Source of the DNA: Promethearchaeota archaeon | Lineage (GTDB): Archaea; Asgardarchaeota; Lokiarchaeia; Sigyniarchaeales; SOKP01 | Reading direction: 5' to 3' | Length of the DNA: 64,000 nt | Assembly: GCA_048938855.1 (NCBI GenBank) | Contig: JBHLLT010000001.1 | Location: 320,124-384,123, forward strand | Part shown: positions 19-6,946 of the stretch, piece by piece | Numbering within the stretch: position 1 is the stretch's first letter | How the letters are laid out: each line of letters opens with the position of its first letter | The notes under the pieces: generated by a model | Seen by the model: only the letters and a program-made list of their open reading frames with translations | What the model was told of the DNA's origin: nothing | The model's database searches: none | Position numbers and translations under genes: made by a program

Positions 19-2274
19 ATGTCATTAAAGGATTTCACAAAAGAAGTATTCACTCGATATGGTTTTACTGAAGAACATATTAACATATATTTAGTTTATT
101 TAAGAGTTCCACGAGCAACACCATCTGAAGTATTCATGACTTTAACAGAAGGAAATGAAGCTTTAACATACGATACTGTGTTAGAAGTCACTAATTGGTT
201 AGTTGAGAAGGGTTTCCTCAAGAGAGTTGAAGGCATTATAGATAGATACATCCCACTTCAGCCATTTTTTGAGTTATTTACTAACGAATCAGAAAAATTT
301 AGAAACGAAATCGGTGTAATTAAAGATAATATCTTAGCTGATCAATCTAATCGGTTTGAAAAGCTAGAAGAAATTCAAAACAAGAGTATTGGAGAAGTAG
401 AGACCGCTGTTGATAAACAAATCACTGAATTTTTCGAAGATTCTGATTCAAAGAATAACGATAAGAGGAATCGTATTGATAGTGCTACTAATCGTTTTAC
501 TGAAACCACTAAAACATTAGAAAGTAATATACATTCTATTATGGATAACCTTAATTCAAACCTAAAAAATATTTCAGAAACTACTGTTAGTAAAAACGAA
601 ACTGAAATAAATAAAACTAAAGATAATATTACCAGTATAATTTCAAATTTACTTAATGATTTTTCCGCCAGAGTTGAGAATTTAGATAAAGAATTAAAAA
701 TGGAACTTGATGAGCATGTAGAAAGACATAAAAATACCGCAAATCAACTTAAACCTAAAATAGATCAAATACTGGAAAAGTATCTCGAGCGGATGGATAG
801 AGTAGTTACCGATTTAAAAGCTAAAATTTCTAACTTATTAAAAGAACATACCACACATTTAAATAATACAACTGATACTCTCCAAACACGTCTAAAAGCT
901 ATAGTTGATGAGAGGCATCGAACTTTAACGGAGCAAACAAATGAGTTTAAAAATATGACATTGACTTTAATTGATAACTTACTTGAACATGCTAATAGAT
1001 TTACTGATTTTTCAGAAGATATGGGTAAAAAAGGCTTTTTCTGGATGGGAAAGAAAAAGAAATACAAAGCTCGACATGAAACAACTATTCAAAATATTTT
1101 ACAATACACCGAACCAATGAAACCTGATTTTACTAAGACTTGTGATGATTATATCACAAACACTCGAAGTACAACTGATAGTATTAAAACTGATGTAACT
1201 GATACAATGGTAAATGAAAATGATGGATTAGCAAATGAAACTAACGATCTTGACTATAAAGCACAAGAAACTATAGAAGCACAATTAGAGACTCTCGCTA
1301 CTGATTTAGCGGGAGAAGTAGACGATACCTTACAAACTGGTGTGAAAGATTGTTCTGATACAACAATAAAGTTAAAAGATACTTCAGAAAGCTCACTTAA
1401 ATCACACCATAGACAATATGATGAAGCAATAAACAATCACAAAGAAAGTTCATTGAAACATTATACTGATTTTGATCTTGAAGTAAAAAGAATAAGTGCA
1501 GATTGGACCAGAGATGTTAATACTAATTTTGAAAATGGCAAAAGAAATTGTTCAGAAAAAATAGATAGTGAAATACGATTATGGAATGCTGAAGCGAAAG
1601 ATACGGATACTAATTTAACCGATATGTTAGCAGATCATAAATCTAAATATGAACAAAACGCTAAAACACTTCAGAATAGTTTATCAAACACAACAAAAGA
1701 TACTATTCAAAATGTTAAAGATGCAATCGCAGATTTTACTCTGCAATTTATGAATTCAATTGATGATGCTACTGAATTAGGAGAAAGTAGTGAGAGTAAA
1801 TTAATTGATATTCATAATGCTTCAAGTTCAATTCCGGAAATCGCTAAAGTTACAACTTGGCCTGTGGTTGGAAAAGACGCCATGGTTGCGGCCATAAAAG
1901 ATGCTATTTATCGAGTAAAATCTTCGATTATAATCGTCACTCCATATGTGGTACCTGATATTTTACAGGTAGTTTCTGAGTATGCTTTCCAGAAAAAGGC
2001 AGCAAGGTTCATGCTCACCTCCCACTGGGATCTTTCCCAATACTCTGGAATTATAGGGAAGATGAAGCAACTTGGGAACATTCAATTTCGACAATTACAG
2101 ACAGCAGGAGAGTTTTTCGCGGTTACTAGAGATGCGGAGGAAGTCATCCTAGCCCCTGCCACAGATAAGGAAACCGAAATGATTGCTGTGGTTTCCAATC
2201 AAGAAGGATATTCAAAGTTATATAGTCAATTCATAGGACCAATCTTTCAGGCAAATTCGAGACCAATACGGTGA
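19..2274 (+). CDS. TrmB-like protein: N-terminal winged HTH, ~520-aa helical/coiled-coil insert, C-terminal TrmB effector-binding (PLD-fold) domain
   Basis: N-terminus GFTEEHINIYLVYL..ATPSEV..WLVEKGFL..RYIPLQP matches the TrmB wHTH pattern. C-terminus WPVVGKDAMVAAIKDAIYRVKSSIIIVTP..FAVTRDAEEVILAP matches the TrmB EBD/PLD-like fold, with no HKD motif. GGAG RBS upstream. Confidence 0.75.
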   Translation: MSLKDFTKEVFTRYGFTEEHINIYLVYLRVPRATPSEVFMTLTEGNEALTYDTVLEVTNWLVEKGFLKRVEGIIDRYIPLQPFFELFTNESEKFRNEIGVIKDNILADQSNRFEKLEEIQNKSIGEVETAVDKQITEFFEDSDSKNNDKRNRIDSATNRFTETTKTLESNIHSIMDNLNSNLKNISETTVSKNETEINKTKDNITSIISNLLNDFSARVENLDKELKMELDEHVERHKNTANQLKPKIDQILEKYLERMDRVVTDLKAKISNLLKEHTTHLNNTTDTLQTRLKAIVDERHRTLTEQTNEFKNMTLTLIDNLLEHANRFTDFSEDMGKKGFFWMGKKKKYKARHETTIQNILQYTEPMKPDFTKTCDDYITNTRSTTDSIKTDVTDTMVNENDGLANETNDLDYKAQETIEAQLETLATDLAGEVDDTLQTGVKDCSDTTIKLKDTSESSLKSHHRQYDEAINNHKESSLKHYTDFDLEVKRISADWTRDVNTNFENGKRNCSEKIDSEIRLWNAEAKDTDTNLTDMLADHKSKYEQNAKTLQNSLSNTTKDTIQNVKDAIADFTLQFMNSIDDATELGESSESKLIDIHNASSSIPEIAKVTTWPVVGKDAMVAAIKDAIYRVKSSIIIVTPYVVPDILQVVSEYAFQKKAARFMLTSHWDLSQYSGIIGKMKQLGNIQFRQLQTAGEFFAVTRDAEEVILAPATDKETEMIAVVSNQEGYSKLYSQFIGPIFQANSRPIR

Positions 2275-2490: not shown

Positions 2491-2916
2491 CTACCAATCT
2501 TTTTTAATCAATTTGTTTAAATCATGATATTCAGTTATTATCCAATTCATTATCTCTGATACTACTTCTTTAGATTCATTTTGTTCATTAAAAATTCGAT
2601 TTAAGTCATAAACGGGGAGTCCTACTCTGGTATATTGTAATCGTTCTTGCTCAAATCCGTTCTGAAGTAAGTGAACATTTACAATTTCTCTGATAAGTGG
2701 CGAAGTTATCAAATTCAGGTTTGTTGAAACTAAAAATCGTACTACTTGTTCAGTAATTTTTTTTGCATTAATTTTTGTAATATTTGTCTCCTTTAGGAGA
2801 GATTGGTAAATAAATCCTGGATGAAAAATATAGGTACCGGCTTTAGTATGAACTCTTGGCAGAAAATTTGAAAATTCAGGAAGTAGAGCGCTAGATTTCT
2901 TACTTTTTACAGACAC
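2491..2916 (-). CDS. Stand-alone ATP-cone domain protein resembling the N-terminus of archaeal class III ribonucleotide reductase
   Basis: SLLKET..AKKITEQV..ITSPLIREIVNVHLLQNGFEQERLQYTRVGLPVYDL follows the archaeal NrdD ATP-cone pattern (LTAPLIREIVN..TRLGLPVYD). No catalytic domain. Confidence 0.75.
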   Translation of the reverse strand: MSVKSKKSSALLPEFSNFLPRVHTKAGTYIFHPGFIYQSLLKETNITKINAKKITEQVVRFLVSTNLNLITSPLIREIVNVHLLQNGFEQERLQYTRVGLPVYDLNRIFNEQNESKEVVSEIMNWIITEYHDLNKLIKKDW

Positions 2917-3059: not shown

Positions 3060-4193
3060 TTAGAGTTGTATCCATATAGCAACCTCATTCGCGTCCCAAG
3101 CTGTGCCTAATATATCGATTTTATTATCATTGTTAATATCTATGGCAGAACAAGAAGAAGCACCATCAAAATTTGCTCCAACAACATGTTCAGCGAACCC
3201 TATGTTTCCAAAATTTTCAAACCAACTCACTTTATCTGCGAAAACTGCTGCACCAATAATATCAAAATCTCCATCTTTATCGAGATCAATCGGAAAAACA
3301 GAATTAGGTGCATTAACGGTAGAAACTTTATGTCTAATAAATACCAGATTACCAACATTTTCAAACCAATCGTTTGTATTTTGGGTTACCGAATTGGCAC
3401 AAATATCAATATCTCCATCATTATCCATATCGATAGGTTGTAGATCATGAACTCGTGCATAATTTGTTGTGAGTTGGATTTTTGTAAAGTTCTCTAAGCC
3501 ATCATTTTCCCAACAACAAATTTCTCCAGTATAGATATCTGACGTAGCACCAGTAATAATATCCACATCATTATCATTGTCTAAATCTGCAGCAAAAATG
3601 GATGCATGTCCTTCGTCTGATATTTCCGGATATCCGATTGAGATGATATGTTCGGTAAAGGTTTGATTTCCATCATTCTCCCACCAGGTAACTTCTTGAA
3701 TACCTGTACTTAGAATATCATTATCTCCATCAAGGTCAACGTCATAAGTATTAATGCTGTAAGCAGATTCATAATTTATAGCAATTACATGTTTTGTAAA
3801 TATTGAATCATTGTTTTCCCACCATGCAAGCTGATCACCCGACCAACTTGGTCCTAAAACATCTGGATCTCCATCCAAGTCTACATCACCAACGTTAATA
3901 AAGAATACTTCGGGAAAATTATTTTCAATGATATGTTGAGTGAAATTGAGATCATTATTTTCCCACCAAGCAATGTCACCAAGCCCATCTGATGATGAGA
4001 TTACATCAATGTCTCCATCTCCATCAACATCGGCTCCATAAATTCGTCCGGGTTGAATAAAATTACTGGCTAAAATAATCTTTGTAAAATTTGGTAAATT
4101 AGTGTAATGTAAGAGTGTTAAGTTTAATCCAATTCCAACAGTAGCACCAGCAACGATAATTAAAGTTAAAACTATTTGTAGAGTTTTTTTCAA
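3060..4193 (-). CDS. Membrane-anchored/secreted FG-GAP (VCBS-like) repeat beta-propeller protein
   Basis: Hydrophobic N-terminal anchor and seven DxDxDxDxD-type repeats (e.g. ADVDGDGDIDV, GDVDLDGDPDV, IDLDKDGDFDI), most followed by W-[WF]-E-N. Confidence 0.85.
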   Translation of the reverse strand: MKKTLQIVLTLIIVAGATVGIGLNLTLLHYTNLPNFTKIILASNFIQPGRIYGADVDGDGDIDVISSSDGLGDIAWWENNDLNFTQHIIENNFPEVFFINVGDVDLDGDPDVLGPSWSGDQLAWWENNDSIFTKHVIAINYESAYSINTYDVDLDGDNDILSTGIQEVTWWENDGNQTFTEHIISIGYPEISDEGHASIFAADLDNDNDVDIITGATSDIYTGEICCWENDGLENFTKIQLTTNYARVHDLQPIDMDNDGDIDICANSVTQNTNDWFENVGNLVFIRHKVSTVNAPNSVFPIDLDKDGDFDIIGAAVFADKVSWFENFGNIGFAEHVVGANFDGASSCSAIDINNDNKIDILGTAWDANEVAIWIQL

Positions 4194-5632: not shown

Positions 5633-6946
5633 TTAGTCCCATTTGGGACCTCCTGATTTTTCTACTGTATTATCATCGTCTTCGGAGTGAATTCTTTTAA
5701 GATCTATATCTTGATAACCGGGAAGAACACCTAACATCCTTCTCATGGCAAATTCAACATCTTTAGCGCTTGCAATAAATCTTCCAACAATTAAAATATC
5801 TGCTCCTTGATCTAATGCATATGATGCACTGCTTGGTTCAATTCCTCCAGCAACAGCTACTAACACTCTATCTCTTCCTGAAGCTTTCTTTTGATTTGCA
5901 TATAATTCTTTAATTTTTGGAACTAATGCCCATCTTGCTTTTTGAGAAGCATCTGGAGAGCTAGCTCCTTCTGTTGATTGCTCAACGTCAATTGCTCTAT
6001 GTATTATTACAACATCAGGTGTTTGTCTTAATGAACTGAGTTTCTCAACCGGGTTTTGAACTTCCATTGTATCAACAAAAGCATGTATCCCTAATCTTTG
6101 TGCTTCTAATATAAACTTATCAAGAGAAGCTGTTGCAGCTAAACCACTAGCAACAACAGCATCTGCAGTGGCATCAAAAGCAAAGTCAACTTCTAACTTT
6201 CCAACGTCTAACGTCTTTAAATCCGCAACAATAAATTTATCTCTAGCCACTTCACGGATCTTTTTAATAGACTCAACACCATATTTTTTAAGAAAAGGAG
6301 TGCCCACTTCGAGTATAATTCGGTCGCTTTTTGGCAATTCTTTAACAACTTTCATTTGTCTTTCCAGAGCAGGATGATCTAAAGCTACCTGGATATATGG
6401 GGGTCTCCAGAGTCTAGGAACTCGAATTCCAGCAACAGGGTGTTTTGCTCGATCTTTATCATAAAATATCTTCTCAATTGGGGGATAACTTTTTAGAGCT
6501 CTCTGGATTGCTAATTTTGTAGCCCCATAATTGTATTGATAAATTTTACGATAATCTTTAGCTTCTGGATGTATATACACGCTTGCTATAATAAGCCAAT
6601 CCTCTATTTTATTCATAGGAATAAGACCTTCTTCGACAGCATCAGCTATCCCTTTAGCAACCGCAGCCTGAGCAGGTCCAAAGATTTTGCTCGCATCTTC
6701 CATTTTGGCAACAGTGACTTTAGGAACTATTAAACTAACTGGTTTTGCCAATAGATTAGGGCGGATTCCTGCGAGTAATCCGCCATGACCTTTAGAAGGT
6801 GTACTTAACGCATTCGCGAAAGAAACTCCTACAGGTCCATCCTTAGATCCAATAATCAAATCTATGTGTGCTAAATTTGGATCACTAGCATCTCCCACAA
6901 GTGCCTCGCCGACATAATATTCAATAGCTTTAGGCATGATTTTCAC
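5633..6946 (-). CDS. fae-hps: Bifunctional formaldehyde-activating enzyme / 3-hexulose-6-phosphate synthase
   Basis: N-terminal Fae motifs (GEALVG, AHIDLIIG, IRPNL, FGPAQAAVAK, YQYNYGATKLAI). C-terminal HPS barrel (YIQVALD, ILEVGTP, VADLKTLDVG, AVAGGI, ILIVGR). Likely ATG start at 6937. Confidence 0.9.
   Translation of the reverse strand: MKIMPKAIEYYVGEALVGDASDPNLAHIDLIIGSKDGPVGVSFANALSTPSKGHGGLLAGIRPNLLAKPVSLIVPKVTVAKMEDASKIFGPAQAAVAKGIADAVEEGLIPMNKIEDWLIIASVYIHPEAKDYRKIYQYNYGATKLAIQRALKSYPPIEKIFYDKDRAKHPVAGIRVPRLWRPPYIQVALDHPALERQMKVVKELPKSDRIILEVGTPFLKKYGVESIKKIREVARDKFIVADLKTLDVGKLEVDFAFDATADAVVASGLAATASLDKFILEAQRLGIHAFVDTMEVQNPVEKLSSLRQTPDVVIIHRAIDVEQSTEGASSPDASQKARWALVPKIKELYANQKKASGRDRVLVAVAGGIEPSSASYALDQGADILIVGRFIASAKDVEFAMRRMLGVLPGYQDIDLKRIHSEDDDNTVEKSGGPKWD

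Follow-up and report, generated by a model that had tools for sequence, protein, structure and literature searches.

A TrmBL2-related protein of Asgard archaea with two length-matched helical arms and a basic, aromatic apex

The gene and its terminal domains

The window analysed here is a stretch of 64,000 nucleotides with a G+C content of ~30% from a Promethearchaeota archaeon (contig JBHLLT010000001.1, positions 320,124 to 384,123). Near its beginning lies a gene for a protein of 751 aa plus stop (window 19..2274, + strand; contig positions 320142-322394), which is present as a single copy in the 3.95-Mb, 97%-complete genome. It appears to be monocistronic, since the upstream gene for an aldo/keto reductase is divergent and the downstream open reading frame (ORF) is convergent. 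The protein consists of a TrmB-type winged helix-turn-helix (wHTH), a helical rod of ~520 residues in two arms with an aromatic and basic apex between them, and a C-terminal phospholipase D (PLD)-like domain.

More than 120 homologues at 72-96% identity were retrieved by a word-indexed search, and among the matches listed all but three are exactly 751 aa long; more than 100 homologues share both the MSLKE start and the length. The length stays at exactly 751 aa down to ~65% identity and is 749-751 aa at ~62%, and this exact conservation argues for selection on the length of the rod. An exhaustive search against 50%-identity representatives gave 180 relatives, the full-length ones having 755-1050 aa at 35-50% identity and the remote ones up to ~1300 aa. 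With a single query at E<=1e-10, the gene was found in 62 of the 68 genomes of its own family, in 6 of the 7 genomes of a second family in the same order and in 64 of 90 high-quality genomes of the Asgard phylum, mostly in one copy each. All relatives with a source name are from Asgard archaea (Loki/Promethearchaeota, Hel-, Thor-, Hod-, Heimdall-, Jord-, Baldr- or Sigynarchaeota). A closed 4.36-Mb genome of the same order (G213), made up of a single contig, also encodes the 1050-aa form and may belong to a cultured strain suited to experiments. Literature searches on Asgard TrmB-type coiled-coil proteins revealed no description of the rod family.

The wHTH (aa 1-82; window 19..264, + strand) occupies aa 8-79 in the full-length AlphaFold2 model, where its elements follow in the order helix-helix-helix-helix-strand-strand; the model was built with a 61-sequence alignment and has a mean pLDDT (predicted local distance difference test) of 75.7. 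A profile search of PDB sequences with 20 N-termini identified TrmB (3qph, E=1.5e-9) and TrmBL2 (E=2e-8), and remote relatives match PF01978 outright, while the query alone gave nothing above threshold against Pfam and NCBIfam (TrmB, E=0.21). In TrmB proteins DNA is read by Y50 and D51 (PMC4158304). The V-Y-D of TrmB falls on V54-L55-E56 in the profile alignment, i.e., Tyr50 and Asp51 are replaced by Leu55 and Glu56, and the column of the DNA-reading Tyr, which holds L, T or A in the relatives, is not conserved in the family. In the recognition helix (aa ~48-64), which is acidic, the net charge is -3 to 0 across the family as compared to +2 in TrmB and TrmBL2. No other 20-residue window of the protein is so poorly conserved (0.20 pairwise identity). 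The wing (aa 65-80, FLKK..G..R[YF]) remains basic and conserved.

The PLD-like alpha/beta domain extends over aa 610-751 (window 1846..2271, + strand; aa 613-749 in the AlphaFold2 model). The query domain itself has no Pfam match, but 7 of 32 C-domain relatives match PF11495 (Regulator_TrmB; best E=3e-6). Its identification required fold comparison, as a profile search of PDB sequences gave marginal matches (E=0.12 for TrmB and E=0.11 for FAM83B). By structure, the domain corresponds to the TrmB effector domain's first subdomain (2f5t residues 110-242; Z 18.5, root-mean-square deviation 1.8 Å over 131 residues), followed by 3qph (Z 17.7) and TrmBL2 (Z 16.1); the PLD-fold proteins Nuc, NucT, FAM83 and Zucchini match more weakly (Z 12-15). 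Neither the query nor any of the 293 family proteins has the catalytic-type motif HxK(x)4D; H669 is the sole His in the domain, and a conserved polar pocket is formed by N687, R691, R704, D705, E707 and E708. The domain aligns solely with TrmB residues 108-242, and the protein ends at aa 751 directly after it, so that the sugar-binding beta-barrel of the second subdomain is absent. This beta-barrel belongs to TrmB and TrmBL1 and not to TrmBL2.

Both terminal domains had been recognized in a preliminary description of the sequence, which placed the wHTH at aa 1-82 and the effector domain at aa ~606-751 and took the end with the TrmB head as the one facing DNA or the nucleoid. The two domains are borne out, the second by the match to 2f5t, whereas a DNA-binding role for the first is weakened by the loss of the Tyr and by a recognition helix which is both acidic and least conserved.

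The PLD-like domain is also found outside the rod protein. In six proteins of 190-230 aa (P0156, P0158, P0178, P0187, P0195 and P0196) it stands behind a short N-terminal helix and is followed by a long poly-Lys/Glu tail, e.g., KKKIKDAKKKAKKERKKEKK; judged by sequence, these stand-alone proteins look like a small paralogous family with a basic appendage of its own. In P0145 (749 aa) and P0264 (746 aa) the domain is N-terminal (aa ~20-143) and the remainder is unrelated to the rod protein, which indicates that the domain has been recruited into other architectures.

The presence of both TrmB domains, together with the label 'sugar-specific transcriptional regulator TrmB' attached to relatives in some sources, would suit an ordinary ligand-responsive TrmB transcription factor in which the long linker is a neutral or sensor decoration. 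We regard this as very improbable, as the DNA-reading pair is lost, the helix that should read DNA is the least conserved segment and the sugar-binding subdomain is absent. Moreover, whether the rod forms a hairpin or an open dimer (see below), each head carries one wHTH, so that two recognition helices could not occupy adjacent major grooves in the manner of the TrmB dimer, and the exact length conservation, taken with the phase-keeping insertions described below, argues for selection on the rod itself. Canonical operator binding by the head is unlikely, and a DNA-binding role in general is doubtful; non-specific DNA, a protein partner and a ligand in the polar pocket of the PLD-like domain are the candidate targets.

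The helical rod and the pairing of its arms

Arm 1 is one continuous helix (aa 83-337; window 265..1029, + strand) with hendecad periodicity, hydrophobic residues at positions a, e and h and a net charge of -13. Arm 2 (window 1054..1827, + strand) consists of two helices, aa 346-364 and aa 367-603, is kinked at P366 and has a net charge of -23. In the full-length model the only break in the rod is a low-confidence loop at aa 338-345, and pLDDT falls below 50 solely at aa 337-346. The region aa 83-605, whose arithmetic midpoint is residue 344, contains just 3 Pro and 10 Gly. Fourier analysis of its hydrophobicity gave a single dominant peak at 3.65 residues (11/3) with a power of 382 (the maxima of shuffled sequences average 56), and the autocorrelation function has its peaks at lags 11, 22 and 44. 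The heptad component is weak and the hendecad phase is unbroken along arm 1. The preliminary description had read this region as a nearly Pro/Gly-free helical insert with 11/22-residue periodicity and its most conspicuous helix-breaking segment at the midpoint, and it holds on each of these counts. About 3 positions in 11 are hydrophobic and form a narrow stripe, as in two-stranded packing. The shaft as a whole has a net charge of -36 in a protein of pI 5.1, Cys occurs only at 375, 445 and 511 with none at the apex, and the protein is without a transmembrane segment.

Pfam and NCBIfam scans of the protein found no ATPase family, and the Pfam scan found no match to the signalling domain of methyl-accepting chemotaxis proteins (MCP). 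The matches that fall on the rod, namely NCBIfam ZorA (E=2e-6, 26 bits against a cut-off of 190) and Pfam Baculo_PEP_C, Exonuc_VII_L and V-SNARE, are all far below their cut-offs and were rejected as coiled-coil noise. A further match of this region, to Pfam Apolipoprotein A1/A4/E at aa 170-321 (E=1.7e-8), is likewise sub-threshold, its 34.8 bits being far below the PF01442 cut-off of 90. Along with weak PDB matches to ApoA-IV and ApoA-I and the 11/3 periodicity in common, it could suggest 11/22-mer amphipathic helices that lie flat on lipid along their whole length, as in apolipoproteins and perilipins. There is hardly any likelihood of this, because the repeats lack Pro punctuation (3 Pro in 523 residues), the hydrophobic face of the strongly acidic helices is narrow, and independent lipid-bound helices need no residue-matched arms.

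The origin of the rod can be traced to the linker of TrmBL2. By profile, the similarity to TrmBL2 reaches into the beginning of arm 1, and by structure (5box) it spans aa 566-751, i.e., the end of arm 2 and the C-terminal domain; the beginning and the end of the rod are equivalent to those of the TrmBL2 linker helix, which makes the rod an insertion inside a linker helix of this type. TrmB alpha5 is one short amphipathic coiled-coil helix joining the two domains (PMC4158304). In TrmBL2 (5bpd, 5box, 5bpi, 5bqt) and TrmB (3qph, 2f5t), as in the rod protein, a TrmB-type wHTH precedes a PLD-like domain without HKD motif, and TrmBL2, a chromatin protein of Thermococcales, shares the lack of the beta-barrel as well. 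The differences are a linker of ~520 residues instead of ~30-45, folded as two antiparallel hendecad arms with a conserved apex rather than as the single short helix of alpha5 type, and the replaced Tyr50/Asp51 in an acidic recognition helix.

To follow the two arms through the family, their lengths were counted between four conserved anchors (P82, G339, G344 and T613) in 20 proteins of 11 length classes, made up of seven aligned length classes and 13 orthologues from other genomes of the phylum. Arm 1 varies from 257 to 407 residues and arm 2 from 269 to 419. The difference between them is exactly 12 in the first seven length classes and in 16 of the 20 proteins; in the remaining 4, where the tip is one residue shorter, it is 14-16 (r=0.9997, slope 0.99). 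Co-variation of the arms, which the preliminary description had named as a check on its hairpin, is therefore seen in all 20 proteins (12-16). Wherever the difference is exactly 12, both arms have grown identically. Growth in arm 1 takes place after aa 166 (window 514..519, + strand), where relatives carry insertions of 44-150 residues built of 22-residue tandem repeats, and in arm 2 at aa 499-522 (window 1513..1584, + strand), where insertions of the same size are found; the two sites are mirror positions about residue 342. All increments (11, 40, 44, 51, 62, 84, 106 and 150) retain the 11/3 helical phase within 33 degrees, and in the longest form both zones of growth consist simply of tandem repeats of 22 residues.

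Co-evolution was analysed by mutual information with average product correction over 16,236 inter-arm pairs in 118 ungapped close homologues (effective number of sequences, Neff, 42; phylogeny not removed). Among the top 200 inter-arm pairs, 19 fall on the anti-diagonal, within 3 of i+j=681-683, as compared to 5.9 expected (p=7e-6). No offset of the scan scored higher than this peak at i+j=681-686, and 339+344=683. The signal is modest, given that Neff, that phylogeny is included and that p is ~3e-3 when corrected for the ~480 scanned offsets. Smoothed entropy of arm 1 against mirrored arm 2 also peaks at i+j=682 (r=0.46); however, a parallel offset gives a higher value (r=0.69), and this test of conservation symmetry does not discriminate.

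An AlphaFold2 model of the fragment aa 262-421 (pLDDT 88.5, predicted TM-score 0.67) folds as helix 263-336, a three-residue K-K-G turn, helix 340-364, the kink at P366 and helix 367-420. Its best PDB matches are all two-helix antiparallel hairpins over residues 1-160 and include an arm segment of P. yayanosii Smc, the Rad50 rod, the dynein stalk, CheZ, chemoreceptors and the iSH2 region of PI3K, with the chemoreceptors 1qu7 and 3g67 as top Foldseek matches (query-normalized TM-scores, TMq, 0.56 and 0.52). All of them are generic (Z at most 10.7, Foldseek E >0.03) and indicate the shape of the model only. A complex prediction of arm 1 (aa 84-337) with arm 2 (aa 346-606) scored 0.14 against a mark of 0.32 and was counted neither way.

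Taken together, the two arms very probably pair ANTIPARALLEL about the apex motif in antiparallel orientation. A parallel continuous coiled coil, which the preliminary description had named among the outcomes that would overturn its proposal, predicts neither arm matching nor mirror insertions nor anti-diagonal co-evolution. Arm matching, co-evolution and the hairpin model support a long antiparallel coiled coil of the SMC/Rad50 kind without separating intra- from intermolecular pairing.

The sequence-based pairing tests fit equally well an extended antiparallel homodimer, in which each chain would form a ~520-residue helix kinked at its centre and the chains would be paired as TrmB alpha5 is. 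Such a dimer would be a ~76-nm rod with a mixed head at each end (wHTH of one chain, PLD-like domain of the other) and a double basic/aromatic waist, able to bridge two distant partners and to bind a surface by the waist. It predicts the arm matching, the mirror insertions and the anti-diagonal co-evolution as well, TrmB alpha5 helices do pair antiparallel between subunits (F81/I91', F84/L88'; PMC4158304), and a monomer AlphaFold2 run can satisfy antiparallel contacts only within one chain; with the modest co-evolution and the generic fragment matches, these points weigh against a fold-back of the single chain. Nevertheless, G339 and G344 hardly vary, paired prolines in the predicted centre of remote relatives (KPFP, KKPDP, KPVTKP) break the helix and suit a turn, and the fragment model folds back with high pLDDT. 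On the strength of the glycines and the paired prolines we infer that the rod is probably an intramolecular two-helix hairpin, the open dimer being quite unlikely. The fold-back proposed in the preliminary description thus stands as regards antiparallel pairing, and remains a probable reading as regards the single chain. At 255 helical residues per arm, the hairpin would be ~38 nm long here, close to the ~39 nm estimated previously, and ~61 nm in the 1050-aa forms.

The hairpin would bring the wHTH and the PLD-like domain together at its base. In TrmBL2 the two domains stand at opposite ends of one helix, and a side-by-side head would mimic half of the domain-swapped TrmB dimer (PMC4158304). 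The earlier suggestion that the TrmB head is kept intact is accordingly better worded as a possible arrangement than as a feature of the sequence.

We note here that five still longer relatives (P0166, P0172, P0223, P0236 and P0262; 1100-1300 aa, Hel-/Thorarchaeota) have rods of 880-1090 residues whose predicted centre is without a Gly/Pro break. Their rods may fold differently, in several segments or with an elbow, or the anchors may be misplaced.

The layout resembles SMC, Rad50 and MukB in that a head is composed of N- and C-terminal parts of one chain at the base of a predicted antiparallel coiled coil, here of 38-61 nm, with a specialized apex, and segments of the Smc and Rad50 rods can be aligned with the whole of the fragment model. 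Unlike these proteins, the rod protein has no ABC ATPase head, hinge domain or CxxC zinc hook, its periodicity is hendecad rather than heptad-based, and there is no sequence relationship to them. The cytoplasmic hairpin of chemoreceptors is likewise a two-helix antiparallel hairpin with a conserved tip and length classes that arise by symmetric insertions, yet it has a 7-residue repeat rather than one of 11/22; a TrmB-like head and the lack of both a transmembrane segment and an MCP signalling-domain match further set the rod protein apart. The protein is a new architectural variant within the TrmB/TrmBL2 family, with an SMC-like layout and no ATPase.

The apex and its candidate partners

The motif GKKGFFWMGKKKKY occupies aa 336-349 (window 1024-1065), and the apex as a whole extends over aa 336-353 (GKKGFFWMGKKKKYKARH; window 1024..1077, + strand). 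It is the one cationic spot of an otherwise acidic rod, and also the most lipid-seeking. No other 5-mer of the protein has so low a Wimley-White interfacial free energy as GFFWM (-4.33 kcal/mol), and no other 17-mer has so high a net charge as the one surrounding it (+8). KKGF[FL]W[MLVA]GKKxKYKARH hardly varies among ~118 close homologues. Across the order the apex takes forms such as KRGSAWKALFxGKHK, VGFFFGKKKK, IGLFFTKKKK and QGIFFFKGKR, each a glycine with an aromatic/hydrophobic cluster and a basic run, and always at the geometric centre. The FFW/K-rich motif, whose central position in homologues the preliminary description had named as a check, is thus central and conserved in kind. The apex lies in a module of ~50 residues which holds the invariant F310, L317, D319, N320, L321, K368 and F371, and six divergent relatives have the combination of anionic shaft and cationic tip in common.

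From this chemistry, and from a five-residue identity to MinD, binding of the apex to a membrane can be tentatively predicted. The first five residues of the KKGFL variant are identical to those of the E. coli MinD motif KKGFLKRLFGG, an established lipid-binding amphipathic membrane-targeting helix (PMC8155659). The MinD motif is C-terminal, while the rod motif is internal, at the hairpin apex, with more aromatics and more charge, and an identity over five residues could arise by chance.

Some observations speak against a membrane anchor at a turn. One short targeting motif of the MinD kind is too weak for membrane binding alone (PMC8155659), for which reason avidity would be needed. The apex of one relative, P0123, is weakly basic (+1 to +3) and weakly hydrophobic. 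Among Asgard relatives at 20-25% identity (Jord-, Heimdall- and others) about half have a Gly/Pro break at the predicted centre, an enrichment of p=0.02, and 8 of 17 are without one; in four of these remote relatives the central break lies beside Phe and Lys/Arg. Moreover, a poly-Lys and aromatic patch can also bind nucleic acid.

This last property leads to a second possibility, in which the apex binds DNA or RNA and the protein, like the chromatin protein TrmBL2, spaces or bridges segments of chromatin, or joins the nucleoid to another structure. TrmBL2 is the closest solved relative, the wing of the wHTH is still basic and conserved, and the aromatics of the +8 apex would be able to stack on bases. 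Such a nucleic-acid bridge is nevertheless unlikely, as the shaft carries a charge of -36, the recognition helix is acidic with its DNA-reading Tyr lost, and four consecutive hydrophobics (FFWM; compare FFF) are more typical of interfacial insertion than of binding to the DNA backbone.

Docking tips for proteins are known from comparable hairpins: the chemoreceptor tip binds CheA/CheW, and the dynein stalk and the Rad50 hook are of the same kind. Chemoreceptor hairpins evolve by symmetric insertions and deletions around a conserved tip, and the same pattern of symmetric length changes with a conserved apex is seen here; the best matches of the fragment model are hairpins of the chemoreceptor, dynein-stalk and Rad50 type, and several of the residues in the apex module are invariant. 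The apex might accordingly dock a partner protein, or other copies of itself to give lattices, bundles or filaments. We hold this to be rather improbable, because a charge of +8 disfavours tip-to-tip self-association without a polyanion, no gene of the neighbourhood co-occurs, and the tip preserves its chemistry although its sequence varies (FFW, FFF, AWKALF), a pattern better suited to a generic surface than to a specific protein interface. Membrane binding is the reading of the apex which we carry forward.

Genomic surroundings, proposed model and meaning

Downstream of the rod gene lies the convergent ORF mentioned above, which encodes 141 aa (window 2491-2916, - strand), has no Pfam family and is not retained beside the rod gene in relatives. 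Two genes downstream, a 377-aa protein (window 3060-4193, - strand) has four FG-GAP-like repeats (PF13517, E=7e-31), i.e., beta-propeller repeats of the integrin-alpha type. Further on (window 5633-6946, - strand) a formaldehyde-activating enzyme is fused to an OMP (orotidine monophosphate)-decarboxylase/HUMPS-family domain (Fae + PF00215), and this fusion gene is kept near the rod gene within the Loki family. Upstream of the window (contig ~316.6-317.9 kb, - strand) a 416-aa protein with HTH_HVO_0163_N and HTH_24 domains is encoded, followed by a 232-aa protein without family; the pair is found again upstream of the rod gene in one Loki-family contig (L009) and is absent in another (L010). 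A search for partners in the gene neighbourhoods of Heimdall-, Jord-, Baldr- and Loki-type contigs gave no neighbour common across lineages, the conservation being inherited, vertical synteny within the Loki family only. The surroundings therefore give no hint at a cellular process, which does not favour the role proposed below.

The following model is put forward tentatively. The gene would be an Asgard-specific derivative of a TrmBL2-like protein with a wHTH, one linker helix and a PLD-like domain. Matched tandem duplications of 22-residue units would have expanded the linker helix into two antiparallel hendecad helices, which most likely form an intramolecular hairpin of ~38 nm here and up to ~61 nm in relatives, with the wHTH and the PLD-like domain as neighbours at the base of the rod. 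At the other end, the glycine/aromatic/poly-lysine knob would dock end-on on an anionic surface, most likely, as we infer, the cytoplasmic face of the membrane, while the acidic shaft, repelled from that surface, would stand off it. The protein would then be most likely a fixed-length strut or ruler that keeps its head at a set distance from the membrane, and the head would hold either DNA, in a non-canonical, non-sequence-reading mode, or a protein or small-molecule partner.

The build is that of a measuring rod. Its length is fixed to the residue within lineages and altered between them in matched, phase-preserving steps only; at one end its chemistry is that of a membrane anchor, and the other end is derived from a chromatin protein or regulator. 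An SMC-like architecture has here arisen from a small transcription-factor fold, with no ATPase. The Asgard archaea are the closest relatives that eukaryotes are known to have, and the organisation of their cells is poorly understood. If a membrane-anchored strut is the true reading, the protein would offer a concrete handle on the spacing of the nucleoid or of organelle-like structures in these cells, and species with the 38-nm and the 61-nm versions should differ in spacing. More remotely, and with a good deal less likelihood than the strut itself, the protein could be an Asgard-wide ruler which ties chromatin, through the non-sequence-reading wHTH head, to the cytoplasmic face of the membrane, at a distance of 38-61 nm that depends on the lineage. 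If so, it would be a prokaryotic analogue, and possibly a functional forerunner, of the eukaryotic tethering of chromatin to the envelope, with a spacing tuned in evolution by matched 22-residue duplications in both arms.

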